Below are positions 875 through 61,156 of a DNA stretch of 64,000 bases, in pieces. Within the stretch, counting starts at the first letter, position 1. Every line of letters starts with the position of its first letter. The stretch is from the IMG/VR virus record IMGVR_UViG_3300010885_055964, positions 1 to 64,000 of that record. One strand, 5' to 3'. The position numbers and the translations under genes are program-made. Below the pieces are notes generated by a model. It searched no databases. It had not been told where the DNA came from and worked only from the letters and a program-made list of their open reading frames with translations. This stretch comes from a virus.

Positions 875-2626
875 TTATGTTTTGACCATTTGGTATTTGA
901 TTACTTGGATATGTGTGGTGTTGCACCAATGTAATTTGATGCCTGTACCTTCTATTACTCTAAAACGACCTACTGGTGGTCTACCATGTACCACTAAATC
1001 AAGCATCTTATCATTGTCGTACCCCACAGTCACGAAAGTGACTTTGTAGGTTTTTGACTGTCCGTTCTTTGTTTTTCTCTCCCCGGTATATTTTCTATAA
1101 GTAGCGACTAATCCTCTGAATGTAACATAGGTTTTGTCATCTTCTCCTATCCATTCCTTGTAGTAACAACCATCTAGAAACTGATCATCTATCCAATACC
1201 CATATTTGGCCAGATCTGACTTTTGCCCGGATGAAGCGTAAGTTTCAATTCCGACTATAGTGTCGTGTTCAATACGCCATGGCGGCTTGCCTAGAGTCAA
1301 CTTCAGACCGGATGCGACAGCATGCCTAAAGAATACCCATTTTTCATACATTGATTCGCAATGATTCAATGCTGTTAACCAGAATTGTTGTGGTTGTCGG
1401 GCTTTCTGATAAGCGAGTGCCCATACCAATTGGCCGTAAGAAATAGCATGTGATTTGCAAAAAGAATATAATGATAGCCTTTTAAAATTATCTCTGATTA
1501 ACTGCTTATCTTCTTCTGATGCTATTCTAGACATCAGCTCTTCTATTTGGTCTTCTTTGTTTTTGGCGAACGCTCTTCTGTAATTGTCTGCTTGTGCTTC
1601 TGTGCAGCCAGTCAATTGTCTGAATTTATCTATCGCATCATCATCGAAAACCAATACAGGATCATGTCCATTTAATATTTTGTCTTTATTACCTTCGGCT
1701 GCTGCTGCCGGTCTTAGAAGTGCTAATGCAAAGGCTACATCCGATCGGCTTTTAGGCTTCATGGACGTGAATATCTTCCTCATAGCAGGTGACTCTGCTA
1801 TGGTGATACCCATATTATCGCCTCTTGATAACAGGTCGCTGGTCGCTGTATCCTCTTCTGGATATTCTGACAGACCTCGTGAGCTTAAATCGTTGAGCTG
1901 GGCTAATGCTCTATTAGATAGTATGTCTATTTTGATCAAGTTCTTCTGTTCAACTTGGTCCTTATTTAGCTTGATCTGATTTCCTTTGAGTATCCATTTG
2001 GGTGGGATGCGTTGATCGAAGATTACTATACCACCACAATGAAGTGAAAATCCTCTGAATGTGTTGCATAGTCCAGCTGCTGTTTGTATTACTTGCTCTA
2101 ATGTTTCTCTACCCAATATCTCCTCTAGATCTGCGTATTTGCCAAACTTTTTCCTATAACCATGTCTTCTAATGGCCTCTCGGATCGCTGATTTTTCTTT
2201 GTAGTATAGATGATTAGATATTCTTGCAACTCTGTGTTTGCCAAAGTGGTCATATATTCTTTGGAAGACATCTTCTCTTCTATTGTATGGAAAGTCTATA
2301 TCGATGTCTGGATTATCGATTCTTTCTTCGTGCATAAATCTGGCTAACGATATGTTATATAGTATTGGATCTATATCTGTTATTCCCAATAGATAGCATA
2401 CTAGTGAGCTACCTGCTGAACCTCTTATCACGTGGGGTATGTCTTTAGTTAACTCGAGTATGGTTTTTACTTGGATGAATGTATCGGTAAAATTCCTATC
2501 TCTGATTAATCGTAGCTCTTGCCTGAGCCTTTGTTTATATGTCTCGTTTTTGGGTAATCGTCTGGTGAAGCTAGATATAATAGTCTGCAGCTTAGATATA
2601 TCGTCTTTCATACTTATCAAATACAC
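875..2626 (-). CDS. dnaE: DNA polymerase III alpha (family C), minimal form lacking the PHP domain
   Basis: Motifs IRGSAGSSLVCYLLGITDIDP, PDIDIDF, LHCGGIVI, IKIDIL, YSFCKSHAISY; no PHP motifs; 583 aa. Confidence 0.88.
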   Translation of the reverse strand: MYLISMKDDISKLQTIISSFTRRLPKNETYKQRLRQELRLIRDRNFTDTFIQVKTILELTKDIPHVIRGSAGSSLVCYLLGITDIDPILYNISLARFMHEERIDNPDIDIDFPYNRREDVFQRIYDHFGKHRVARISNHLYYKEKSAIREAIRRHGYRKKFGKYADLEEILGRETLEQVIQTAAGLCNTFRGFSLHCGGIVIFDQRIPPKWILKGNQIKLNKDQVEQKNLIKIDILSNRALAQLNDLSSRGLSEYPEEDTATSDLLSRGDNMGITIAESPAMRKIFTSMKPKSRSDVAFALALLRPAAAAEGNKDKILNGHDPVLVFDDDAIDKFRQLTGCTEAQADNYRRAFAKNKEDQIEELMSRIASEEDKQLIRDNFKRLSLYSFCKSHAISYGQLVWALAYQKARQPQQFWLTALNHCESMYEKWVFFRHAVASGLKLTLGKPPWRIEHDTIVGIETYASSGQKSDLAKYGYWIDDQFLDGCYYKEWIGEDDKTYVTFRGLVATYRKYTGERKTKNGQSKTYKVTFVTVGYDNDKMLDLVVHGRPPVGRFRVIEGTGIKLHWCNTTHIQVIKYQMVKT

Positions 2627-3338: not shown

Positions 3339-3600
3339 GAGCCCATAAAACCCTAGATAAATCAGCAGCAGTTGCGGTCACACATTCTTCTGATACAATA
3401 TCAGGTCCCAATATAGCATGTAGGGCTTCGTGGCATTCAGTTTCTAATCTTACCCTGCCTTTTAATTTAGAATTAATTAATACTTTTCTATCTGCAAACA
3501 TCGTCCAGCCATCGGCTAGACCTTTGAGTGGTGAATATCGCCATAACCAACGGCGTTCAGACAGTCGAAAGTGGTGGTCTCTGTCTGCCATAATTACCAC
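3301..3600 (-). CDS. Small HExxH zinc metallopeptidase-like protein
   Basis: ECHEALHA motif preceded by a predicted strand (RKVLINSKL). Confidence 0.55.
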   Translation of the reverse strand: MVIMADRDHHFRLSERRWLWRYSPLKGLADGWTMFADRKVLINSKLKGRVRLETECHEALHAILGPDIVSEECVTATAADLSRVLWALGYRLPTVGKSE

Positions 3601-3705
3601 TGTTATTAACTCTTAATAACTACATCAACACTGGCCAATCATAAGGCCAGTCGTCCTCTCCGATGATCGATAAATCAATGTCTATCTCCATGACACCAGA
3701 CTCTC

Positions 3706-5070
3706 TTATTTATTACTAGCTGGTAGTCCCGTGTAAGTGTCTATATTAGACTGGAGTCGTGCTTCCGGCCCAGTATGATAATCCCAGACGAATGCCATAG
3801 CTCCCCGCTTCTGCCAATTAAATCCTTTAAGACGGTGCCACTGGTTAGGGGGAGTCAACGCTGGAAGATATTCCACACTTACTCCTTGCTCCTCCATACT
3901 ACTGGGTTTGCCTGACCCCTTACGATGTTGATCCCCTAAATGCCACTCTCGATATATCGTTTGAGACCAGTCAGCTGGCCTTTCATTCGCCATCAATGCT
4001 GGAAGTCTAGTGTTAGAGATATGATGGCCGTGTTCAAACCCTATTAGATTAACACCATATCTGTGAAATTTGTACGGCGAGCTATCAGCATCTACTATCA
4101 CATTTTGATCATTTCTATAGTAAGCATTTAAAACTCTGGCTAGGGTATAAGAAGAGTGATGATCATGGTTGCCAGGGATGCTAATTACTTTGACATTAGC
4201 TTCTCGTTTAAGTCTCTCTACCATATTTATGGCTAATATTTCTGCTCTCTCGTAGACGTAGCTCCATGAAATTCCTTCAGGTTGAGAGGTACCTTTTGTT
4301 GTTTCATGCTTCATGCCATCATGATGCATATAGTCATTGCCGAAAGGAAATATTATTTCCTCGAAAGGACCATGATGTTGAGCTTTGTGGATTAAGTCCT
4401 CGATAGCCCACATACACAAATCTTCACACTCTTCGAGGCTCCATTGCATGTCAGAGGACGGTTTGTAGCATTGCAAACCAAAATGTGGATCCATAATCGA
4501 GACTTCCAAAGAACGTTTCAGGTCCTTGGCTTTTTTAATAGTCTGCCTTTTGATTAAAGGCACCTGTTTCGATTTGCTACCAACCATTTCGATAAGTGAC
4601 TCTATCGCTAATCTCTCATCTGATTTTCTCCGCAATCTGATCTTTATTTGTCTTAGAGGCATCTTCCACAATCTTTGTGTGGCTCGCTCGTCAGATTCTC
4701 CTTTGTGATTAATCTTTCCACCTAATTCCCAATTATTTATGGTCACTTCTGCCACTTCCCATATGTTCAGATCTACCTTACTACTAGCTAATAATTCGTC
4801 AGATGTCTGTATGGAATTACCGACATATTCTATTATTATGTTGTTATCAGATTGTCTAATCTCTGTTTTCTCTGGCGTTTCTTCGCCAGCATGATCATTA
4901 CTATTTGCTTTCGGTGTGTCGCCTAATTTTCTCAGTGCTATTGCATATCGGTCGTAAATCGTACTTCTAGAGAGTCCTAATTGTTTAGCTGCTTTTGAAA
5001 AATTACCATTATTCGCTTCTACTGCGTTCTTCGCTTGTATTAATGATTCTAAGCTTACTTTAACTGGCAT
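3706..5070 (-). CDS. N-terminal HTH plus calcineurin-like metallophosphoesterase
   Basis: HTH (FSKAAKQLGLSRSTIY); DPHFG, GND, PGNHD, FEHGH and GDQH metal-binding motifs. Confidence 0.8.
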   Translation of the reverse strand: MPVKVSLESLIQAKNAVEANNGNFSKAAKQLGLSRSTIYDRYAIALRKLGDTPKANSNDHAGEETPEKTEIRQSDNNIIIEYVGNSIQTSDELLASSKVDLNIWEVAEVTINNWELGGKINHKGESDERATQRLWKMPLRQIKIRLRRKSDERLAIESLIEMVGSKSKQVPLIKRQTIKKAKDLKRSLEVSIMDPHFGLQCYKPSSDMQWSLEECEDLCMWAIEDLIHKAQHHGPFEEIIFPFGNDYMHHDGMKHETTKGTSQPEGISWSYVYERAEILAINMVERLKREANVKVISIPGNHDHHSSYTLARVLNAYYRNDQNVIVDADSSPYKFHRYGVNLIGFEHGHHISNTRLPALMANERPADWSQTIYREWHLGDQHRKGSGKPSSMEEQGVSVEYLPALTPPNQWHRLKGFNWQKRGAMAFVWDYHTGPEARLQSNIDTYTGLPASNK

Positions 5071-5171
5071 GTTTTACTCCGTACATGCTTCATTGATTAG
5101 ACAAGTTGTGCATATTATCTTCAGGCTTGCATGTCTTTTTTATACTCTTAATTCCACGAGAGCGGTGACGT

Positions 5172-5516
5172 ATGCTATGTGATATATGCCAGCAACCTCT
5201 TACAGCTCTAATCAGATATGATGATTATCCTTTTATAGATGGTAAGTATTATGACATTGTATGCCACATATGCCATAGTGTGCCTAGGACATGGCAATAT
5301 GACCAAGAAGGTAATGTTATATATTATGGATACTTAGATTGTACCCGACTAGCCTCTGTTCAGACACTCATGCGAGAGGGCTGGGACCAACAGCAAGCTC
5401 TATGCTCTATACGTGCCGTCAAAAAATTAATCAAATATAAAGAGTATAGTATTCACATCAGGCAATCATTCTTTATTATTAAACAATTGTATAACATGAA
5501 TGTCGAACTATGGTAA
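5172..5516 (+). CDS. Hypothetical zinc-finger protein
   Basis: CDIC and CHIC pairs; divergent from the 5070 gene. Confidence 0.55.
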   Translation: MLCDICQQPLTALIRYDDYPFIDGKYYDIVCHICHSVPRTWQYDQEGNVIYYGYLDCTRLASVQTLMREGWDQQQALCSIRAVKKLIKYKEYSIHIRQSFFIIKQLYNMNVELW

Positions 5517-5965
5517 CACAGGGTGGTAATAGTGATCACCCCTATCGACAATCGATACCTTTACTAATATTTAAAGATCTAGCTAAGCAATTCCGTAAGC
5601 AGCTGGGTATACAATTCGATATCAAAGCACATCCCATTAACGCCACGTCAGCTACATTAGTATTCAAAAATCCGGACCACAAAATATCATTCTACTTATT
5701 CGCTGGTAACTTAGACCTATTACTCGCCATAGTCAAATTGCTGTCGGTGCCTTATGTCAAGGCATGGGTAGATAAGCATAAATTATTTAGTCAACCATTT
5801 AATTCGGAAGCCAGCACCAGCAAATACATAATATCAGTAGATATAATCAAAGGTAACAAACTATCCAGTGCCAAGTCACCAGTACCCATTGGAATAGATT
5901 TGGCAGACCCAGACAGCATTTCAGAAATAAAAGACTGGATATCAGTCGTCGTTCAAAATGTTTAA
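5510..5965 (+). CDS. Hypothetical protein
   Basis: 151-aa ORF overlapping both neighbours. Confidence 0.5.
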   Translation: MVTQGGNSDHPYRQSIPLLIFKDLAKQFRKQLGIQFDIKAHPINATSATLVFKNPDHKISFYLFAGNLDLLLAIVKLLSVPYVKAWVDKHKLFSQPFNSEASTSKYIISVDIIKGNKLSSAKSPVPIGIDLADPDSISEIKDWISVVVQNV

Positions 5966-7328
5966 TTCACCATCTAATCTTAATCTTTTATTTATCATAA
6001 CTGATCAACAAAGATACGATGCTATAGGATATACAAACCATTTAGTCAAGACACCCAATTTAGATGGATTAGCTGATCAATCTATAGTTTGCCGTCAAGC
6101 GATAGTACAAAGCCCCCAATGCCAGCCTAGCAGGGCTTCTTTGTTGACTGGTCTTTATCCAGACAATATAAAAATGTGGTGGAATGAGACCACTCTCGAT
6201 CCAAAATACCGTACTATAGGCAACCATCTCATTGATAATGGTTATAATACTGGATACTTTGGCAAACTACACATTGATGGAGAACCTAACTACAAACAGG
6301 TGGCTAATCATTATGGATTTACCAACACATACTTAACTGAAGATTGGATAGGTTTAATCCAATCAAACAAAGATCATGCTGTGAATAAGGCCAAGCATGA
6401 ATTTTATTCACCGATGCAAACAGACATTCAAATATCTTTACCACTAAAGTACATGGCGCCATGGACAGGCAAACTCTCATCGAGCCAATCACATCACGAA
6501 GATGTAGTAGTTAATAATGCCATAAGATTCTTACAACAACAAAAATTACAACACAAACCTTTTGCTTGCTTCGTTAGTTTCCATGGTCCTCATCCTCCAT
6601 ATTGTTCACCGCCGCCATTTAATGATTTATATCGCTATGGCGACATACCTTTGCCAGATCAATTATCGACCACGTGGTTTGGTCATCAATTGTCTAAGAC
6701 CGATTGGCACAACATCAAAGCCCAATATTATGGTGCAATAGCATGGATAGATGATTATATCGGTCAGATATTGTCTACGGTAGACCTAAGTGATACTTTG
6801 GTCATATTCACATCTGATCATGGTGACATACTGGGTGATCATGGTTATTTTTCTAAAGGCGTTTTCACATATGAAGGAAATGTAAGAGTTCCATTAATTA
6901 TCCATTGGCCTGGGATGGGTAGGGTCGAATATCATCATCCTGTGCAGTTAATCGATATATTGCCGACTGTTATGGACATTATGGGTTTATCATTTAATGA
7001 TAAGATAGACGGGATAAATCTTTCTCAATCACTATTAAGCGATTCTCCAGTAAATGAATTCGCATTTAGTGCTATTGGTATTAATCCGCGTCATTATATG
7101 GCACGTCAATCCCAATATAAATACAATATTGGAGATAAGCAGCAATTCTACGATCTAGTGACTGATCCAGGAGAATCAGTTAATCACATAGACAATCCGA
7201 CATATGCTGAACAGCTTATGAAAATAAGAACAGGTTTATCTGATCACTTATCGAAGCTCAATAACCATCATTCACGTAATGCGAGTGATTGTATGAATAG
7301 AATGGCTAATGTCATATATTATTCTTAA
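5958..7328 (+). CDS. Sulfatase (formylglycine-dependent, choline-sulfatase/arylsulfatase-like)
   Basis: IITDQQR, CQPSRASLLTG signature, GKLH, PHPP, SDHGD, EGNVRVPLI, FYDLVTDPGE. Confidence 0.92.
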   Translation: MFNSPSNLNLLFIITDQQRYDAIGYTNHLVKTPNLDGLADQSIVCRQAIVQSPQCQPSRASLLTGLYPDNIKMWWNETTLDPKYRTIGNHLIDNGYNTGYFGKLHIDGEPNYKQVANHYGFTNTYLTEDWIGLIQSNKDHAVNKAKHEFYSPMQTDIQISLPLKYMAPWTGKLSSSQSHHEDVVVNNAIRFLQQQKLQHKPFACFVSFHGPHPPYCSPPPFNDLYRYGDIPLPDQLSTTWFGHQLSKTDWHNIKAQYYGAIAWIDDYIGQILSTVDLSDTLVIFTSDHGDILGDHGYFSKGVFTYEGNVRVPLIIHWPGMGRVEYHHPVQLIDILPTVMDIMGLSFNDKIDGINLSQSLLSDSPVNEFAFSAIGINPRHYMARQSQYKYNIGDKQQFYDLVTDPGESVNHIDNPTYAEQLMKIRTGLSDHLSKLNNHHSRNASDCMNRMANVIYYS

Positions 7329-7446
7329 TCATATAGAGGCTAATCTCCAGGACCTTTACTTGCCCTTAGGTGGCTTTATCCGCTTACTATCCACACGACG
7401 CTGTATAGCAGCGACCTGTTCAGCCCAACTACACCCACACTTAAAA

Positions 7447-8295
7447 CTAATTTTCTTGGTTATACTTAATAGTATGTGCTATATATTCTTGGATCATGAG
7501 TGGTGTGCTATTAACTATATCGACTCTTCCTATTGGTGTCCAACCCTGTCGAAATATTTTTGGTACTTTATTAGAACTAGCTAAAACAAATCCATCGTAG
7601 CTGGTCGTATGCGTGAGAAAATCAGATGAGACTATAATGTTATAATTATGATTAGTAATAATGCTTAAGACATCATCATGTAGTTCTTGAGAGTGGGTCG
7701 AAATGAACGCATAACCTATTTTCGAATTTTCAAATGCGATCTTTGCTTCCTCTAGCATATCGATTTCGTACCCTTGTATATCAGAATGTAGAATGTCTAT
7801 ATAATCTATATTGTTGTCCGACATTATCTTATCAACGTTTAGGTGGTTCTTGCCAATCAGTCCAGAGATATGAGTGGCTCGATAGTTATTCATCAATATG
7901 TTTAACTTGCCTACATCCATATGGTGGTCGTCTGGCTCTAATATGAAGCATTTTGCTTCCCTCCTTACCCTCATTAGCCACATAGAATAATGAGCCCAAT
8001 AAGCACCTAGCTCTAACATTGTAGGTGCAGCCGGCATTATTTTTAAGACCTGTTGAAAGCAATATTCTTCAAGCGGCTCATGCACACCACGGTTTAGTAT
8101 TAATATGTCACTAAATCTACCGTAGTAACTATCCAAAGACACAATATTTCCATTATGCAAAATTACACAATTATTGGCAACATAGCCAGCGTTCGGCACT
8201 CTTTCAATTAATATATTATGAGGGTCGGATATAATTTCCCTAAATCTATCATATTTAACATTAGCTTTTTCAGTATTTATCTTATGTATTAACAT
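7447..8295 (-). CDS. FkbM-like SAM-dependent methyltransferase
   Basis: MLELGAYWAHYS, LEPD, ILHSDIQGYE, FISTHS. Confidence 0.75.
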   Translation of the reverse strand: MLIHKINTEKANVKYDRFREIISDPHNILIERVPNAGYVANNCVILHNGNIVSLDSYYGRFSDILILNRGVHEPLEEYCFQQVLKIMPAAPTMLELGAYWAHYSMWLMRVRREAKCFILEPDDHHMDVGKLNILMNNYRATHISGLIGKNHLNVDKIMSDNNIDYIDILHSDIQGYEIDMLEEAKIAFENSKIGYAFISTHSQELHDDVLSIITNHNYNIIVSSDFLTHTTSYDGFVLASSNKVPKIFRQGWTPIGRVDIVNSTPLMIQEYIAHTIKYNQEN

Positions 8296-52923: not shown

Positions 52924-53253
52924 ATGGACATTATACACATCATATTATGTTTGCTAGTGTTATCACAAGTAATCGCGCAACTCATCACATTGGTACTACT
53001 ATACAAGATATATTACATTTTTGATAGATTTAGATTTCCCTGGGAAGAGATCAAGGCTATAACAAATGCTTGGAAAACCACAATACCCCCAAGCGATTTC
53101 TCGTCAAACAAGGATATTACGCCAACTACGGGAGCTAAAGCAGCTAGCACAGTTAAAGAACTCCCACCAGAAGCAATTGCCCCCAGTCTTAAAAGAATGC
53201 AAAGAACATCAGGCTTCGGTTCCGGTATTAGTGACAAGAACAGTGATACATAA
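52924..53253 (+). CDS. Single-pass membrane protein
   Basis: N-terminal hydrophobic helix. Confidence 0.55.
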   Translation: MDIIHIILCLLVLSQVIAQLITLVLLYKIYYIFDRFRFPWEEIKAITNAWKTTIPPSDFSSNKDITPTTGAKAASTVKELPPEAIAPSLKRMQRTSGFGSGISDKNSDT

Positions 53254-53425
53254 GTTTACTCAACAGGTGACCGTACGCAGAGAGATTAAAGTAATAATCA
53301 ATAGCGATCGTCCAAGACCATGCCAATTACCAAAAGATAGTGCGATACAGCCTGATATTGACCACGCGGTTGATGAGTTACAAGTATATAGGCTAGGTGA
53401 TGTCTTCAACGGCAGGAGAGTAGTT

Positions 53426-54508
53426 ATGCAACACTTAGGCATCGATGTGGGCACTAAGACTATAGTTTTAGCATATAGATCAGATGATAAGGTAGGATAT
53501 CTGTCAGAAATTAATGGCTATTACCCTTTCGAAAGGTGTACACCATTTATCAAGAATATGCTCAATGATCCGAATAAGGTACGGTCTGATGGCACCAAGA
53601 GACCAGCTAGGTGGTTCGAACACGATGGTAAGGCGATCGTATTAGGTAGAGATGCTGAAGAATTCGCATATGCTAAGAACGATACATTATTGAGACCAAT
53701 GGCTGAAGGCGGCATAGCAGCAGATGAAGCGGCTATGACCGTGTTAGCTGCTATAGTTCAGGGTTTAATGACTATGGCTGAGCATGATGTAGGAAAGTTC
53801 GATGATCAAGTTAAGCTATGTTATTGTACTACTGCTAAAGCGATAAACAAGCATTCGAATATAGATTATCATCAGAGAGTCGTTAATTTGGTTCTCGAGG
53901 GTTATGATACCAAGGCCAAGCTATCATATAATTCGATATATGAATCCCACGCTATTGTTATAGACATGAGTGAAGACGGTACTGGAATAGGGATATCATG
54001 GGGGGCAGGTACTGTAACTGTTAGCTACGTCAAGTACGGTTTAGAAGTATACTCTTTCTGTTGGGTAGGTGCCGGTGATTGGATAGACTCACAAGTAGCA
54101 TCTAGGCATGGGTATGATCCAAATGCTGTAAACACTATGAAGAAAAAGGCGAAGGAAACGCCGACAACTGTGGCCAAGAAGAAGACTGAAGTAGACTTGA
54201 CTCCGGGTGTAGATTATAGTAATGATAGATTAGCGATGGATATAGTGCTTCATTACGACGTGCTTATAAATCAAGTGATAGAAGGCATTGTTGAAGGCTT
54301 TAAGCAGAACGAGTCTGAAGCGAGAATTGAAGGTGCTGTGCCTATATTTATGGCTGGCGGCACCTCGTCGCCAGTTGGTTTCGTAGAAAGATGCGCTGAA
54401 AAGTTAAATCAATTAGAACCGCCTTTTGAAGTAGGAACTATCAAAAGGGCCGAACAGCCATTGTATTCCGTAGCGACTGGCTGCCTAAAGGCAGCTGAAA
54501 TGTTTTGA
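53426..54508 (+). CDS. Actin-like ATPase (MamK/ParM/MreB superfamily)
   Basis: GIDVGT, LLRPMAEG, ESHA, SWGAGT, AGDWID, MAGGTS, YSVATG; AGGAG RBS before ATG 53426. Confidence 0.82.
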   Translation: MQHLGIDVGTKTIVLAYRSDDKVGYLSEINGYYPFERCTPFIKNMLNDPNKVRSDGTKRPARWFEHDGKAIVLGRDAEEFAYAKNDTLLRPMAEGGIAADEAAMTVLAAIVQGLMTMAEHDVGKFDDQVKLCYCTTAKAINKHSNIDYHQRVVNLVLEGYDTKAKLSYNSIYESHAIVIDMSEDGTGIGISWGAGTVTVSYVKYGLEVYSFCWVGAGDWIDSQVASRHGYDPNAVNTMKKKAKETPTTVAKKKTEVDLTPGVDYSNDRLAMDIVLHYDVLINQVIEGIVEGFKQNESEARIEGAVPIFMAGGTSSPVGFVERCAEKLNQLEPPFEVGTIKRAEQPLYSVATGCLKAAEMF

Positions 54509-54613
54509 CATAATATGTGACGGACTGCATTTGTATTCTGGTTAGTATTGATATGTGTTTGTATCGAAGTGGCCATTGTATTCAAAAGCAAAAACTTTCA
54601 ATAGATATGAACA

Positions 54614-56062
54614 ATGGCATATGATCCCAAAGATTATAGTGGTTCTACGCAATTTGTACATTTGCACAATCACACTGTATTTTCTGCTCTGGATGGTGTA
54701 GCCACTCCAGAACAATACGCTAAATTATGCTCTGAGCGTGGGTATCCTGCTATGAGTGCTACTGAGCACGGGCATATGGCATCGGTACCCGACATGTACT
54801 TGGCGTTTAAAAAATATGGAATCAAGTATATTCCAGGATGTGAAATATATTATAATGACTGGGAACCGCATAGACAAACGCTGGAACAAAGCGGAACAAA
54901 GGTCAGATCTCCCGAATGGAGAAAAAATAATCCTGATATTTCTGCTAGGATATCTAGAAACAGACATTTAACTATATTATGTAAAAACGAAGTAGGATAC
55001 CATAATTTATTAAAACTTACTACTCAAGCATATGAGACTGGTTTATTCGGCATGGGTAGGACGCAGTATAACCGAATATGGTTTGAAAAGCTATGTGAGT
55101 ATAAAGAAGGTCTTATTATATTATCAGGCTGCTTAAATGGCCCAATTAGTCATGAACTTAGGCATCGCTTCCTTAAGGATAAAGAAGGCGTCAAGATTTT
55201 CGAACGAGATAAACAACAAGCTTTCAATGATGCTATAAAATATGTAAAGATGTTTAAAAAAGAATTTGGTGATGACTATTATATAGAATTACAGATGCCT
55301 GGTATTGAAGCCATTGATAAGTGGGGCGAAAAAACGGTAAGTGATGATGCTGTCTTCAAGTGGTCAATAGCTATAGCCGATAAATACAATATACCTGTCG
55401 TTTTGACCAATGATTGTCATTATTTAGATCGCAAAGACTTCGAATTGCAAAAGCTTATGATGGCTGTGGCTCAAGAAACAACTATGGATTCTCCCGATTT
55501 ATTTCATGTTAATAGTAGTGAGCAATTCGTACAATCTAGAGCTGAATTGTGGTCTAGATTTAAAAACAATAAATATAGCGAAGGTATAGACGATAGAATA
55601 TTTGAAGTGATGTGTGATAATACATTGAAAATAGCAGAAAAATGCGTAGCATTTGATGTAGACACGTCCCCTAAGATACCTGAAATAGATAATGCTGATG
55701 ATTCTATCAAGCAGATCGTAGCCAAACGCTTAAAGGAAGGTGGATACGATAAAATAACTAAGAGATATTTAATAGACGGAAAAGAAGTGACATACGTTGA
55801 GCAAGCTAAAATAGAATTAAATAGATTTATCGATAAGGGATATTCGAGTTATTTTTTAATAACTCAAGATCTTGTTAACTATGGTAGACAAAGAGGTTGG
55901 CCGTTTAGCCCAAGAGGCAGTGCTGGTGGTTCTTTGGTGTGTTTCTTGATGGGCATCCATACGTTGAATCCTATGTTGTGGGGTCTATCGTTTGATAGGT
56001 TTTTATCACCTAGTAGAGGTGGTTATATGTTAAACGTAGACATGCCAGATCCAATCAGTTGA
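54614..56062 (+). CDS. dnaE: Split DnaE, N-terminal part: PHP domain plus GS-motif palm segment
   Basis: HLHNHT, TEHG, GCEIY, SGCLNG, TNDCHY; RGSAGGSLVCFLMG..NP and FDRFLSPSR; ends DMPDPIS. Confidence 0.9.
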   Translation: MAYDPKDYSGSTQFVHLHNHTVFSALDGVATPEQYAKLCSERGYPAMSATEHGHMASVPDMYLAFKKYGIKYIPGCEIYYNDWEPHRQTLEQSGTKVRSPEWRKNNPDISARISRNRHLTILCKNEVGYHNLLKLTTQAYETGLFGMGRTQYNRIWFEKLCEYKEGLIILSGCLNGPISHELRHRFLKDKEGVKIFERDKQQAFNDAIKYVKMFKKEFGDDYYIELQMPGIEAIDKWGEKTVSDDAVFKWSIAIADKYNIPVVLTNDCHYLDRKDFELQKLMMAVAQETTMDSPDLFHVNSSEQFVQSRAELWSRFKNNKYSEGIDDRIFEVMCDNTLKIAEKCVAFDVDTSPKIPEIDNADDSIKQIVAKRLKEGGYDKITKRYLIDGKEVTYVEQAKIELNRFIDKGYSSYFLITQDLVNYGRQRGWPFSPRGSAGGSLVCFLMGIHTLNPMLWGLSFDRFLSPSRGGYMLNVDMPDPIS

Positions 56063-56088
56063 TTTATTACAATTGCTGGAGTCATTAA

Positions 56089-56580
56089 ATGACAGAGACA
56101 AAAGATTTAGAAATAGCGATTAGCGAACTTAAGCATTCTATAAAGATTCATCTGTTAATAATGGCAGGTCCGAGCCAGCAGCTTTGTGCTTTTTTGGTAA
56201 AAACGATCGATTTATTAGAAGATGATGATATTCAAAGGAAAAAGCAGGAAACATTGTTGTTGGCCTTTAGTATCGTAGAGGCAATAGCGGTGCATGTTCA
56301 ACAGGCGATTGATGCGAGGGGCCAAGTAGCGAAAAACAAAGGTAATCATATGCCAGAGAATGTCAGATCTTATTCTGATAATATATTAATAACGTTAGGC
56401 CAGGTAAGAGGACTAAATGACAAGAGGGTGGCTAAAACGGCTGTGCTTGTCGCTATAGGCAAAGCATTAGATGCTCTGGGGACATTTACTGGCGCAGTAT
56501 ACCCTACGATTTTTGAAGTTGATGGACGTCAGCTGAATAATCACCAGACAAGACCCGGAGAACAAGCGGAGACATTATGA
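56089..56580 (+). CDS. Hypothetical helical protein
   Basis: 163 aa, GGAG RBS. Confidence 0.6.
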   Translation: MTETKDLEIAISELKHSIKIHLLIMAGPSQQLCAFLVKTIDLLEDDDIQRKKQETLLLAFSIVEAIAVHVQQAIDARGQVAKNKGNHMPENVRSYSDNILITLGQVRGLNDKRVAKTAVLVAIGKALDALGTFTGAVYPTIFEVDGRQLNNHQTRPGEQAETL

Positions 56581-56831
56581 AGGATTTTAGCTGGTACACC
56601 GCCGTTATTGTATTCGTTATATATATATTATTCGATATATTATATGCTCTTTATGTCATGTGTGTTAGTCAACAAAGAGCTTTGCGGGCTAGTGTTATAA
56701 GCTCGATATTATATAGCATAGGTGCATATGGGGTTATGAATTATTTAGAGAATCCATTGTACATTATTCCCTTAGCATGCGGTGCGTTTATAGGCACTTT
56801 TATTGCTGTGAAATATATGGGCCATTTGTAA
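56577..56831 (+). CDS. Small three-helix membrane protein
   Basis: 84 aa, almost fully hydrophobic. Confidence 0.65.
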   Translation: MKDFSWYTAVIVFVIYILFDILYALYVMCVSQQRALRASVISSILYSIGAYGVMNYLENPLYIIPLACGAFIGTFIAVKYMGHL

Positions 56832-56840
56832 TTAGGCAGA

Positions 56841-57293
56841 TTGAATAGCGGAATAACGTGTATTAGGAAGAACATGAACATCAATTATGAGAAGACTGCC
56901 TTTGTGCTGATCAAACCTCCTTCTAAGGTAGTTTCTACACATAAGATCAACAACAGGCATGAGCATATCAAGCTAATCGAGACAGCTAAACATAATGAAT
57001 TGTTGCTATATTATTCCCATGTCATAAAAAAAGGAAATAAATATTACACTGATCAACCGTTAATAGTTGATGAAGAATCAGCTAAAAACTATATCGATAT
57101 GTTCTCTGACAACACAGAGAAGGAGGACAGTGTTGAAGTTCAGCCCAGTGTTCAGGTCGCACCGCCAATCACAGAAGAACGGTCGCTTGTATGTCCTTTT
57201 TGTAATAAAAAAATGTCAAGCACACCGGGGCGGACTTTACACATTAAATCTAAACATCCCGATAAGTTAGATGAGTACAAGGGCATGCTATGA
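56841..57293 (+). CDS. Protein with C-terminal C2H2 zinc finger
   Basis: CPFC...LHIKSKH. Confidence 0.65.
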   Translation: MNSGITCIRKNMNINYEKTAFVLIKPPSKVVSTHKINNRHEHIKLIETAKHNELLLYYSHVIKKGNKYYTDQPLIVDEESAKNYIDMFSDNTEKEDSVEVQPSVQVAPPITEERSLVCPFCNKKMSSTPGRTLHIKSKHPDKLDEYKGML

Positions 57294-59995
57294 AGAATTG
57301 GGATCAGATAAAGGAATTAGCTTATCGAGTAGTGTCCGATCGTGGTCTAGATAAAAAATATCAAGAACGTTTGGCTTTTGAAATTATTGAAATAGAAAAA
57401 CAAGGTGCTAGTGCTAAGTGGGAAATATATTATAACGATAATAAGAAATTCGCTACCAATCCAAATAATTTAGTGTTACCGTGGTTATTAAATATGGTTA
57501 ATGAGGATCCTATACTTAGTAGGAATGATATTATATTAAACACAGTTAGAGCATCAAAAGTCAAAGAATACCGAGCCAAATATGGGAGTATTCCTTCTGA
57601 TTTTATTAAAGATACAGACATGCCAGACATTGATCTAGATTGCTTACCAGAAGCTAGAGATCCTATTAAAGAATATGCCGCTAAGACATATAGTATGGGT
57701 ATAACGGATGGATATGGTCCTGTCTGTTCTGTAGGAACTTGGCAGACTTATAAATTCAAAAACGCTATTATTGATGCTTGTGCTGGAACAGGATTGGTGG
57801 ATAGAAGTGTAGCTTTCGAGCTGACTACTCAATTGCCAGATGAAGTCGATCAATTAAAAGACGGAGGTGAGGCCGCTTGCAAAAACCGCATTATTGATAA
57901 TGGAGAGGAAAAAGAATGCGGATTTATTCATAGCTTAACCGAATGCCCAAGATGTGGTTCAGCAGACACTGATGCCCCAACCATAGGTAAGTTATTACAA
58001 GAATACGAAATATTAAGAAATTTCGCTTCTACGCATAAAACAGTAGTTGGATATGCTGTTAAACTGGTGGGTCGTGTGCGTAATATGGGCATGCATGCTG
58101 GTGCTCTCATAATAGCAGATAGGTCACTATTCGGTAATATCCCAATGGCTAAAAGCAGCAGCAAAGGCTATTGGGTCAGTATGTGGACAGAAGGCCGCAA
58201 TGCTCAATTATCTAAATTTGGATATAATAAATGGGATATACTTGGTCTCAAAACACTTAAATATATTTTTGAATGTTGTAAATTGATAGAAGCCAATCGC
58301 GGTATATCTTTCGGACCTAACATGGAAGGATGGGACTATAACGATCCCGAAACCGGGATAGCAGGATGGTATATTGATGGAACCGGAAAGAAATGTGATA
58401 TATTACTTAATGACGAACATACCTTAAGATTAGCTAACGAATTAAAAACAGATGGTGTTTTCCAATTCGACACAGATTTAGCTAAACAAATATTATCGAA
58501 TGGTGTACGCAACTTCGATGACTTAATGTTGTTTAATGCTATGGGCCATCCAGGCCCAATGGCTTCGATTCCAGAAGCAGTAGAAAATAGAGATAATTTC
58601 AAGAAAGATTGGCGATCTGCTTTGCCTAAACCTATTTATGAAATATTAAAGTATACATATGGTGTAATCGTTTACCAGGAGCAATTGCAAGCTATTTGGC
58701 AGATAATGGCAGGGTTTACAGCTCCCGAGGCCCAAGAAGCACGTAAGGCTGTAGCCAAAAAATGGACTCATAAACTAAAACCCATAAGAGAAAAATGGCT
58801 TAAGGGTGCGAGCAGGTCTATGAGTGATAAGGATGCAGAAGCATGGTGGGCCAAAATGGAGACATTCGGTCGTTATGCTTTCAATAAAAGCCACGCCGTC
58901 AGTTATTGTTTGGTAGCTCATAGATGTCTTTGGCTCAAAGCTCATTTTACACCAGAATGGTGGGCCGCAGTGATGAGCGATTGCCACCAAGAAAAGCTAG
59001 TAAGATATATGGGGATAGCTAGGTCTGAAAAATGGAGGCCGACCGAAATCACTTATTCTGGGAAACATCGTCCTGCTAAAAAATCGGATGGAGTCATATT
59101 TGATACGCTAAATTTAGAAAATATGACAAGGAGTTTCACTGTAACAGGAGACACGGTCAATCAGGGCTTAATCGGAATAAAAGGTATAGGGGAAACAGCT
59201 GCTGTAAAGTACGAGCGAAAAGGCGTTTATGCGGACATCGACGAGTTTATTACAAAAACAGGTGGAAAAGATAAAGCCGCATGCGAGCGGTTCATAAAAT
59301 TGGGTGCTTTCAAATATATGCAAGGACATAGCAATTCGAAGGCTGTATGGACATGGTATCAATATAAATATTGCAGTGGGAAAGATATTACTGCACTTAG
59401 GACAACTATCAAAGAGCAATTACTAGCTGCAGAAGGATGGAATGATCAGACTATCGAGCAAGAGAGAAAAAGGCAGATCACTGAATACAAGAAGGCTTAT
59501 CCTAATAGAAGGAAAGTTCCTGAAAAGCTAATAAATTGGAAACCGAGTCCAAATGATTCTCGTGATAATGTAATGGCATTGGTAACTGAAGACTTCTCTC
59601 TTGTGGAAGTGCTGCAGTTTGAGAAAGACTATTTAGGGTATTATTTACATTCTCCTTTAGATCTATACGAGTGTAAGGGACAATGCTCTATTGAAACAGC
59701 TAAAGATTATTCTACTAAAGACACATCAACCAGATTAGAAGGAGTTATCGTAAGCGTAGATTATGGTAAGACCAAAAATGATAAAGATTTCGCTAAGATA
59801 ATAATAAGTGATGGTATACAACAGACATTAGTCTTAATGTGGGAGTCAGAAATCAAACATCAAAATCAAGATACATTAAAACCAGGCGTAGGAGTACAAT
59901 TATACGTCAATTATGACCCTACTAGAAATATCTTCTCAGTAGCAAGAAATGAAGCTATTCTTAGACTAAAACGGAAGCAACATGCAACTAGTTAG
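57290..59995 (+). CDS. dnaE: Split DnaE, C-terminal part: catalytic Asp residues, thumb with Zn-ribbon insert, fingers, HhH, OB fold
   Basis: PDIDLD, MHAGALII, KWDILGL, IVYQEQ, FNKSHAVSY, GIKGIGE. Confidence 0.92.
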   Translation: MKNWDQIKELAYRVVSDRGLDKKYQERLAFEIIEIEKQGASAKWEIYYNDNKKFATNPNNLVLPWLLNMVNEDPILSRNDIILNTVRASKVKEYRAKYGSIPSDFIKDTDMPDIDLDCLPEARDPIKEYAAKTYSMGITDGYGPVCSVGTWQTYKFKNAIIDACAGTGLVDRSVAFELTTQLPDEVDQLKDGGEAACKNRIIDNGEEKECGFIHSLTECPRCGSADTDAPTIGKLLQEYEILRNFASTHKTVVGYAVKLVGRVRNMGMHAGALIIADRSLFGNIPMAKSSSKGYWVSMWTEGRNAQLSKFGYNKWDILGLKTLKYIFECCKLIEANRGISFGPNMEGWDYNDPETGIAGWYIDGTGKKCDILLNDEHTLRLANELKTDGVFQFDTDLAKQILSNGVRNFDDLMLFNAMGHPGPMASIPEAVENRDNFKKDWRSALPKPIYEILKYTYGVIVYQEQLQAIWQIMAGFTAPEAQEARKAVAKKWTHKLKPIREKWLKGASRSMSDKDAEAWWAKMETFGRYAFNKSHAVSYCLVAHRCLWLKAHFTPEWWAAVMSDCHQEKLVRYMGIARSEKWRPTEITYSGKHRPAKKSDGVIFDTLNLENMTRSFTVTGDTVNQGLIGIKGIGETAAVKYERKGVYADIDEFITKTGGKDKAACERFIKLGAFKYMQGHSNSKAVWTWYQYKYCSGKDITALRTTIKEQLLAAEGWNDQTIEQERKRQITEYKKAYPNRRKVPEKLINWKPSPNDSRDNVMALVTEDFSLVEVLQFEKDYLGYYLHSPLDLYECKGQCSIETAKDYSTKDTSTRLEGVIVSVDYGKTKNDKDFAKIIISDGIQQTLVLMWESEIKHQNQDTLKPGVGVQLYVNYDPTRNIFSVARNEAILRLKRKQHATS

Positions 59996-60551
59996 TAAAG
60001 ATGGAATAGCATGTGATCAATGTGGTACCACTCATAAATTAGACTTTACATATTATTCGTTCGATTTCAGGGTCGTATCCGTCATATCAGGTAGAAGGTT
60101 AGCTTTAAGGGAATTATTAAGATCTAAGATAGTTCACTCGCTGGACATATGCCAGCAATGCTATGACAATATAAAAATGGAAGTGATTAAAAACTATCAA
60201 TCTACTATGACTAATGATGTGAGAAAACGGGGTACGAGTAATACGGTAATTTGCGAAATTAGTGGTAGGAAAATATTAGGTGCTAACTATAATTATTATT
60301 TATGTTGTGTGACAGAAGTAAATGTGTCTACATCAGGCCAGCCCAACATTTGCACAACATGCAGACAACAGACTAGAGATAGTGATAAAATATGTAGCAA
60401 TTGCAAAGGTAGCTCGTTTACAAGGACAGCTAATACCTCGACATACGATAGATTACTCGATATAAATGTATGTCAGGAGTCATTTAAAGATATGGTAAAT
60501 AAGTCAGAGTTGGTGAAAAAACAAGCGTCAGAGTGGTCTACTAATAGTTAG
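59982..60551 (+). CDS. Cys-rich zinc-binding protein
   Basis: Multiple CxxC pairs. Confidence 0.6.
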   Translation: MQLVSKDGIACDQCGTTHKLDFTYYSFDFRVVSVISGRRLALRELLRSKIVHSLDICQQCYDNIKMEVIKNYQSTMTNDVRKRGTSNTVICEISGRKILGANYNYYLCCVTEVNVSTSGQPNICTTCRQQTRDSDKICSNCKGSSFTRTANTSTYDRLLDINVCQESFKDMVNKSELVKKQASEWSTNS

Positions 60552-60559
60552 GGATAAAA

Positions 60560-61156
60560 ATGTATAATCCATATGACCTAGTTAAGATCAAGATAAATGG
60601 CAAAGAGACATATGGTAGACCTGTGGCATTCGACTCTGACCCAATAAACATACATACTTTGAAAAATAAGGATGGTGAGCTAATTAAGCCGATTTTATTG
60701 ACTAGTGCCTGTCCAGATTGTGGCCAAGGCCTTGAGATTAATATAAGCCAGGGTGAATGCCCATCAGGAGTGTATATTGAATGCCACCTGTGTAAGGATA
60801 AATCGAAAATCAAGGTCGGAACCGTTAATAGGTTCAGGAAAAATGAGGAAGCACCAACAGATGAACCACTGCTTTGTAAAAATAATGATATTTGCAATAT
60901 CGACACGACAGTAGAACAAAGATTCGATATGCCTGAAGAACAACACCCAGATGTCGCTTCTGAGACTAAAGACGAACCCAAGCAGAACATAAAGAAAAAT
61001 AAGAGAAGTAAGAAGAAGACAGACATTAATGAGCAAACCAATGCCGACCCAGTAGGATTCGTTAATGTACCTCCATTAAAGAAGAGGATCGAATCAGCTC
61101 AAGGCTTAACAGAGGAAGTAGAAATAGACGACGCAGACATGGTCGAATTAGAATGA
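60560..61156 (+). CDS. Zinc-ribbon protein with acidic tail
   Basis: CPDC...CHLC. Confidence 0.6.
   Translation: MYNPYDLVKIKINGKETYGRPVAFDSDPINIHTLKNKDGELIKPILLTSACPDCGQGLEINISQGECPSGVYIECHLCKDKSKIKVGTVNRFRKNEEAPTDEPLLCKNNDICNIDTTVEQRFDMPEEQHPDVASETKDEPKQNIKKNKRSKKKTDINEQTNADPVGFVNVPPLKKRIESAQGLTEEVEIDDADMVELE

Follow-up and report, generated by a model that had tools for sequence, protein, structure and literature searches.

Family C DNA polymerases replicate all bacterial chromosomes, and in structural work they have been studied as single chains. The subject of this report is a family C polymerase, DnaE, that is encoded as two proteins in the IMG/VR virus record IMGVR_UViG_3300010885_055964. 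We analyzed positions 1 to 64,000 of this record (hereafter the window, 64,000 nucleotides), which form part of a 178-kb viral contig with a CheckV completeness of about 49%; the source is an uncultured giant phage whose bacterial-type replicative DNA polymerase is divided between two genes, here called gene 1 and gene 2 (Table 1). The nearest case in the literature is a divided, "minimal" Pol III alpha predicted in group 2.2 (T4-like) jumbo phages (Iyer, Anantharaman, Krishnan, Burroughs, Aravind, Viruses 2021;13:63, PMC7824862). In that computational prediction, separately encoded N-terminal nucleoside triphosphate (NTP)-binding and C-terminal Mg2+/template-binding subdomains, with no intein, are proposed to reconstitute one enzyme, a minimal core without PHP or other Pol III domains whose genes lie distant from each other and which occurs beside a family B replicase (PMC7824862). 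Full-text literature searches returned no description of a full-size split form, only this prediction of a much smaller split enzyme.

The enzyme of the window shares with the predicted one its membership of family C, the site of the cut, with NTP binding on one side and Mg2+/template binding on the other, and the lack of an intein. It differs in being full size, with PHP, fingers, helix-hairpin-helix (HhH) and OB domains rather than a minimal core; in having its halves 1.2 kb apart on one strand, in one operon and with conserved open reading frames (ORFs) between them; and in carrying, on its catalytic half, an additional copy of the NTP-binding segment that is now vestigial. Whereas the predicted enzyme accompanies a family B replicase, no family A or family B polymerase (PolA; PolB, PF00136), DnaQ or beta clamp was found on the 178-kb contig, an absence that is provisional at its present completeness. 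When compared with the solved enzymes (M. tuberculosis DnaE1, 7pu7 and 5lew; T. aquaticus and E. coli Pol III alpha, 2hpi, 3e0d, 2hnh and 5fku), the two proteins keep the same domain order and the RGS, D-x-D and K-x-D motifs, but they form two chains, are 25-33% identical to their solved counterparts, and have a duplicated N-terminal palm segment (palm-N) and an inserted cluster of four cysteines (Cys4). We read the locus as an ancient and stable fission of a family C phage DnaE into two subunits that are never joined, assemble non-covalently and share a composite active site, a reading to which we assign a probability of roughly 0.7.

Two other kinds of divided enzyme invite comparison. The halves of the cyanobacterial split DnaE (Wu et al. 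1998; Caspi et al. 2003) reportedly carry N- and C-intein fragments and are joined by protein trans-splicing into one chain. That enzyme is likewise encoded by two genes, but it is cut elsewhere in the protein, and the halves in the window have no Hint domain. In the cases known as genes in pieces, and in other two-gene polymerases, an essential enzyme is cut in a conserved region, its pieces assemble non-covalently and the arrangement is linked to selfish nuclease genes: nrdA of Aeromonas phage Aeh1 is reportedly split by the free-standing homing endonuclease mobE (Friedrich et al. 2007), gp43 is reportedly split in some T4-like phages (Petrov et al. 2006), and PolB of Methanothermobacter is likewise reported to be split (Kelman et al. 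1999). The present locus resembles these cases in that two of the related metagenomic loci discussed below carry a nuclease gene by the catalytic strand (an HNH-motif ORF in L008, a DUF7487 nuclease in L010). It departs from them in that the interval between its halves contains no nuclease gene in the window, the split is fixed throughout a large clade and not in one phage alone, and a duplicated segment has been kept.

The position of the cut can be read from the way in which two profiles of the polymerase are divided between the genes. Positions 4-99 of Pfam PF07733 (260 positions) are covered by gene 1 and positions 99-260 by gene 2, starting at its residue 109; in PHROG 405, the full-length phage DnaE profile, gene 1 covers positions 41-444 and gene 2 positions 440-1068. 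The cut is therefore exact: RGS lies on one side of it, and the catalytic strand with the first two aspartates on the other. An earlier first-pass annotation of the window had placed both ORFs at the coordinates found here and had described gene 1 as a PHP domain with the RGS and FDRFL motifs that ends before the DID motif, a description that agrees with the end of its coverage at PF07733 position 99. The stop codon of gene 1 follows residue 482, 14 residues past the last conserved block, and in all 117 relatives compared the gene-1 proteins end 8-18 residues past the S-R-G-G block.

The PHP nuclease site of gene 1 is intact, with all nine metal ligands present (H16, H18, D27, H52, E77, H118, C173, D267 and H269, the last two just outside the Pfam PHP envelope); they align with those of M. 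tuberculosis DnaE1, the best solved relative of gene 1 (7pu7, E 7e-44), and are 94-100% conserved in the 117 relatives. T. aquaticus and E. coli alpha have the same nine ligands as well, and in single-chain DnaE1 the PHP domain is an active proofreader. In the palm-N segment, R434, G435, S436, G439, S440, F460, R462, F463 and R468 are invariant among the 117 relatives, and the segment is the best-conserved part of gene 1, with a mean top-residue frequency of 0.86 versus 0.77 for the PHP domain.

The remainder of the polymerase is carried by gene 2. D113, D115, D117, K314 and D316 do not vary among 83 gene-2 relatives. The earlier assertion that gene 2 holds all catalytic aspartates was borne out, with D115, D117 and D316 as the residues concerned. 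The AlphaFold model of gene 2, with a predicted local distance difference test score (pLDDT) of 87.7, matches the Pol III alpha structures 4iqj, 3e0d, 5fku and 2hnh with Z scores of 20-21 over 487-610 residues. Across the two genes, the PHP, fingers, HhH and OB features of a family C DnaE and its overall fold are all present; RGS and the three carboxylates of the palm are brought together only by gene 1 and gene 2 combined, and the catalytic core does not lie on one polypeptide. Four cysteines mark an insertion that separates the catalytic strand from the K-x-D strand and has no aligned counterpart in E. coli and T. aquaticus Pol III alpha; they are invariant in the same 83 relatives and fall on small beta hairpins in the model, and the insertion is probably a zinc ribbon. 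The aspartate of the IIADR stretch was considered as third carboxylate and rejected, since the K-x-D of M. tuberculosis and T. aquaticus Pol III alpha pairs in the alignment with K-W-D, whose aspartate is D316.

Judged from sequence comparison across metagenomes, the split is old and clade-wide. With clusters counted at E<=1e-60 and over a length range of 265-844 amino acids (aa), 520 gene-1-type clusters were found; at least 120 gene-2-type clusters (90% identity clustering) are 46-85% identical to gene 2 and lie on contigs of up to 408 kb. Full-length gene-2 relatives cover 97-100% of gene 2, including its N-terminal extension. The first-pass annotation had proposed prevalence as a check, and the split form is present in hundreds of metagenomic relatives, the contigs of gene-1 relatives reaching 438 kb. 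Among proteins longer than 845 aa, every gene 1 relative of at least 41% identity lacks a fingers domain, and its extra length consists of inteins where Pfam domains are recorded; in this set the score falls from 367 to 186 bits at cellular DnaE, which is 33% identical, and no unsplit relative above 33% identity was found. In seven of the seven related loci examined (L004-L010), gene 1 comes first and is separated from gene 2 by two or three small ORFs; gene 2 is 46-85% identical where measured. Purifying selection on both halves across so large a clade argues for a working two-chain enzyme.

Cultured phages present a different picture. In a collection of 50,697 phage records, the split form was not found in any cultured or deposited phage: blastn of the locus gave no match, tblastn retrieved only one-piece DnaE genes of cultured phages (24-32% identical), and a 130-aa stand-alone version of the extension, described below, had no match. 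An exact peptide-pattern search of IMG/VR likewise returned no related locus. As a separate observation, gene 1 is matched from one end to the other (residues 12-468, E 1e-62) by PHROG 7513, a family of 461 positions labelled "unknown function", and given this match a truncated DnaE of the gene-1 type may already exist unremarked in some sequenced phage.

If the halves were rejoined at the DNA, RNA or protein level, be it by repeat deletion, a cryptic intron, a split intein or ribosomal bypass, the split would be only apparent. The window offers one feature in favor of this very improbable alternative, an exact 12-bp direct repeat with one copy in the gene 1 tail, where it encodes part of D-M-P-D, and the other in gene 2. 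The copies are spaced 1578 nt, in frame, and encode the same four residues, and deletion of the 1578-nt in-frame interval between them would yield a continuous canonical junction. Six related loci (L004-L009) lack both the repeat and the spacing: the longest word shared by the equivalent places is 4-10 nt, and gene 1 and gene 2 differ in frame in four of these loci, among them L007 (85% identical, spacing 1604 nt). Since repeat and in-frame spacing are not conserved, the ability to rejoin the halves, whether through deletion, bypass or splicing, is not conserved either, and we reject this alternative; by our own estimate, identical codons for D-M-P-D at both sites amount to a coincidence of about 1 in 30. 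We know of no precedent for a 1.5-kb ribosomal bypass.

Direct searches for a splicing device point the same way. No Hint or intein Pfam match was obtained in the five ORFs of the locus or in isolated junction segments, and Rfam gave no match on either strand of positions 53000-61000 at the permissive threshold of E<=1. The first-pass annotation had held that no intein is present and had named intein or intron elements as contrary evidence; these were looked for in the window, and the statement stands. Pfam, PHROG and ESM Atlas searches detected no nuclease domain in the three intervening ORFs. An intron is further contradicted by an interval filled with intact, conserved ORFs and by a gene 2 that is conserved as a protein from its own start codon, its extension from the first residues onwards; a split intein, by residues 1-108 of gene 2, which are homologous to palm-N and do not have a Hint fold. 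The short tail of gene 1 behind its last conserved block also speaks against rejoining.

The homology of this extension to palm-N had been proposed in the first-pass annotation, which described a degenerate palm copy without a GS motif. Pairwise and family searches gave that proposal no support, in that BLASTP found no similarity between gene 1 and gene 2 and Pfam nothing in gene 2 residues 1-115; it was sustained, register included, by profile-profile comparison. Aligned with hhalign, a profile of 108 extension sequences matched the canonical palm-N profile with 94.7% probability (P 5.6e-8), and against the whole 1143-column DnaE profile it gave a single match, to columns 296-420 (P 2.4e-6; runner-up P 0.19). 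MAFFT placed the extensions of 45 relatives onto the palm-N columns of gene 1 unprompted, which hints at homology. In the resulting register the Y-x-x-R-L helix matches, N-P-N-x-L-x-L-P-W-L-L falls on the helix after the GS motif, the D-P-I turn matches and the GS loop is replaced.

Structural comparison lends the homology weak, model-based support. When a second model was superposed on solved chains, the extension fell on residues 825-964 of PolC (Z 6.7, root-mean-square deviation (rmsd) 3.2 A over 84 residues) and on residues 299-458 of T. aquaticus Pol III alpha (Z 5.8); the gene 1 segment fell on that same part of PolC, at residues 823-937 (Z 4.4). These Z scores are modest, and they are informative because the matches fall on the homologous region of chains of more than 1000 residues. 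In the model of gene 2 the extension reaches a pLDDT of 89-96. Seven of eleven alignments of that model to DnaE-type Pol III alpha start at residues 106-113, corresponding to E. coli residue 398, and two more start at residues 85-87; as most of them begin after the extension, there is a weak hint that it may not fill the canonical palm-N site. Sequence conservation in the extension is clear, with E31, Q38 and L61 invariant and eleven more positions conserved in at least 90% of the 83 relatives (mean top-residue frequency 0.64 over the core, residues 21-76). An exhaustive HMMER search of 1.84 billion representatives returned 84 proteins with the extension, always at the protein N-terminus, and none of these 84 matches was a one-piece DnaE.

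Under the reading of a stable fission, subunit 1 would supply the PHP domain, probably a proofreading 3'-5' exonuclease as in M. tuberculosis DnaE1 because its metal site is intact, and the palm strand-helix unit with RGS and F-D-R-F-L...R, which would hold the triphosphate of the incoming deoxynucleoside triphosphate (dNTP). Subunit 2 would supply the next strand with two metal-binding aspartates, the K-x-D strand, the Cys4 insertion, fingers, HhH and OB. The palm-N segment of gene 1 would complete the palm sheet of gene 2, giving one active site built from both chains; with less confidence, the gene 2 extension would be an assembly or scaffolding module and not catalytic. From the two sequences we thus infer a physical heterodimer of the gene 1 and gene 2 products.

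Several points temper this reading. A single-chain chimera (residues 355-482 of gene 1 joined through 409 read-through residues to residues 1-330 of gene 2, with three alignment rows covering the gene 1 segment) folded with a mean pLDDT of 56, the gene 1 segment at 46-83 and the catalytic strand below 50, and showed no confident docking. Two alignments of the gene 2 model (2hqa, 4jom) start at model residue 34, equivalent to chain residue 327, so that the position of the extension is uncertain, and the conserved K-K-F-x-S-N-P-N loop that stands in place of the GS loop makes a divergent nucleotide-binding role of the extension conceivable. With the contig about half complete, the missing part of the genome could encode another polymerase. 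A one-piece compact DnaE, P0331 (583 aa, positions 875-2626, minus strand), is present in the window; it has no PHP domain, carries RGS and D-I-D-I-D on one chain, starts exactly at the palm-N segment and matches PF07733 positions 14-259 (E 4e-47) as well as the fingers domain.

The same features of the extension could be taken to mean that gene 2 is self-sufficient, the extension being a working GS-less nucleotide-binding subdomain and gene 1 a PHP proofreading or pyrophosphatase subunit whose palm-N segment acts as a docking handle. Such an arrangement would account for an extension that has the fold and register of palm-N, that reaches very high model confidence when folded as part of gene 2, in which a conserved basic/Asn loop occupies the GS position, and where two structural alignments start at roughly the canonical place. 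Mere docking, however, would not lead one to expect that R-G-S, G-S and F-D-R-F...R stay invariant in 117 relatives, that no other part of gene 1 is as well conserved or that inteins are attracted to the RGS codons, as described below. The extension, for its part, has lost every known triphosphate-contacting residue, has no strand pairing with the catalytic strand in the model and is a separate small protein in L010. We regard a self-sufficient gene 2 as unlikely, chiefly because the invariance of RGS and F-D-R-F...R is hard to explain under it.

P0331, together with a contig that represents only half of a genome, could also suggest that the locus is a recently disrupted, decaying dnaE in a phage that uses another polymerase. 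Both ORFs are intact, however, and their catalytic and PHP residues are conserved in hundreds of relatives down to 46% identity, a form in which a pseudogene would not persist; we find this explanation scarcely credible.

The fission interpretation gains a possible origin from the mobile elements found in relatives. Inteins typically home to functionally constrained sites. In the gene-1 relatives P0209, P0222, P0223, P0229 and P0230 an intein lies exactly between the glycine and the serine of P-R-G-S, and several relatives with an intein at this site end inside it, as in a split intein. Gene 1 also contains an intein in L006 (2621-5260) and L008 (2310-4880), as indicated by Hint, LAGLIDADG or intein-splicing Pfam matches. 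L008, the most distant relative examined, has in addition an uncalled ORF with an HNH-type motif (H-x-x-x-x-x-D-H...N...C-x-N-C) directly upstream of gene 2 (5957-7001).

In L010 gene 2 has been cut again, leaving DnaE in three pieces. The extension forms a 130-aa protein (4456-4848) with about 55 extra residues that give a faint intein-like match, a DUF7487 / endonuclease-I-like nuclease gene lies on the opposite strand (4808-5686, minus), and the catalytic piece (5863-8124), which has no C-intein, begins only a few codons ahead of the D-I-D-I-D strand. Its occurrence as a separate protein here implies that the extension is a separable module, and about 18 of 84 representative extension clusters are of the stand-alone kind (128-138 aa). 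Since inteins and nuclease genes recur at the same spot, the active-site codons are a repeated target. This suggests, but does not prove, that the original fission was caused by a mobile-element insertion; the present arrangement may have arisen by duplication and subfunctionalization or by insertion of a mobile element carrying a foreign dnaE fragment.

A more speculative role for the extension, which we consider improbable, is that of a second partner for the catalytic strand. The enzyme would then switch between the RGS site of gene 1 and a GS-less site, gating polymerization versus PHP proofreading or selecting an unusual dNTP pool, and it could be a family C replicase adapted to 2-aminoadenine DNA. 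That last possibility is raised by an adenylosuccinate-synthetase-family (PurZ/PurA-like) gene located two genes upstream of gene 1 in L009 (52% identical), with ThyX nearby (3486-4628 and 1304-2287).

Should the fission reading be correct, it would mean that a Pol-beta-like palm can be assembled in trans and that a fission arising from partial duplication can go to fixation even in the gene for an essential enzyme, and it would provide a ready-made system for studying communication between the PHP proofreader and the polymerase site. A clade with a three-piece fission and repeated invasion by inteins and nuclease genes constitutes a record of selfish elements remodelling core replication genes. 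What the window contributes is the finding that the 12-bp repeat is not conserved, and a variant middle ORF between the halves.

Table 1. Coordinates of the split DnaE locus and its features in the window
Feature	Position	Strand	Evidence or remark
Gene 1 (P0001, 482 aa): PHP and N-terminal nucleotide-binding half of Pol-beta-like palm	54614..56062	+	Pfam, PHROG
PHP domain (gene 1 residues 16-227)	54659..55294	+	PF02811, E 4e-35
Palm-N segment (gene 1 residues 374-469), with RGS at 55913-55921 and F-D-R-F-L...R motif	55733..56020	+	PF07733 4-99
12-bp direct repeat, first copy	56038..56049	+	
orfA (P0003, 163 aa)	56089..56580	+	counterparts in relatives
orfB (P0004, 84 aa), hydrophobic, variable slot	56577..56831	+	
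orfC (P0005), C2H2-type zinc-finger protein	56841..57293	+	start probably ATG at 56874
Gene 2 (P0002, 901 aa): catalytic subunit; start overlaps orfC stop (ATGA)	57290..59995	+	
N-extension (gene 2 residues 1-108): conserved GS-less remote copy of palm-N segment	57290..57613	+	
12-bp direct repeat, second copy	57616..57627	+	
Catalytic strand (gene 2 residues 113-117) with D115, D117	57626..57640	+	aligns with M-P-D-I-D-x-D of solved Pol III alpha
Four-cysteine cluster C197, C210, C219, C222 inserted in palm/thumb region	57878..57955	+	
K314-W315-D316: third carboxylate and phosphate-contacting lysine	58229..58237	+	aligns with K-x-D
Fingers domain (gene 2 residues 352-509)	58343..58816	+	PF17657, E 5e-29
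HhH DNA-binding region (gene 2 residues 614-680)	59129..59329	+	PF14579, E 4.5e-6, above gathering score
C-terminal OB fold (gene 2 residues ~797-896)	59678..59977	+	model matches many OB folds, Z ~10, rmsd 2-3 A

The locus consists of five tightly packed plus-strand ORFs, in the order gene 1, orfA, orfB, orfC and gene 2, with junctions of 26, -4, 9 and -4 nt; the stop codon of gene 1 and the start of gene 2 are separated by 1227 nt. A promoter/terminator scan gave counts not above those in shuffled sequence. The first-pass annotation was right that three ORFs separate the halves, but its description of them as unrelated holds only for the middle one, which is variable, since orfA and orfC are conserved at this place in relatives. 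Counterparts of orfA occupy the same position in L004-L007 at 44-71% identity, and those of orfC are found in L004-L008, with the C-P-x-C...H...H finger and the S-T-P-G-R-T-L-H block invariant in L004-L006. Pfam, PHROG, a PDB sequence profile and ESM Atlas provided no lead for orfA, and Pfam, PHROGs and ESM Atlas nothing for orfC beyond "viral C2H2 zinc finger"; in ESM Atlas the protein begins at orfC residue 12, and the named clusters closest to it are viral C2H2 proteins. The fixed position of orfA and orfC suggests that their products are partners of the polymerase.

The middle slot is more changeable. Among the related loci, orfB was found only in L007, the closest relative (71% identity), and the slot holds an ORF of about 150 aa in L004 (5913-6365), L005 (5983-6423) and L006 (5766-6227) and one of 178 aa in L010 (3913-4449), the last giving a weak Pfam match to RNase H (E 0.0036). 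Upstream of gene 1, at window positions 53066-54508, lies a gene of the actin-like Volactin family (PF25216, E 7e-43), and a member of the same family is also found upstream of gene 1 in L004, L007 and L010.

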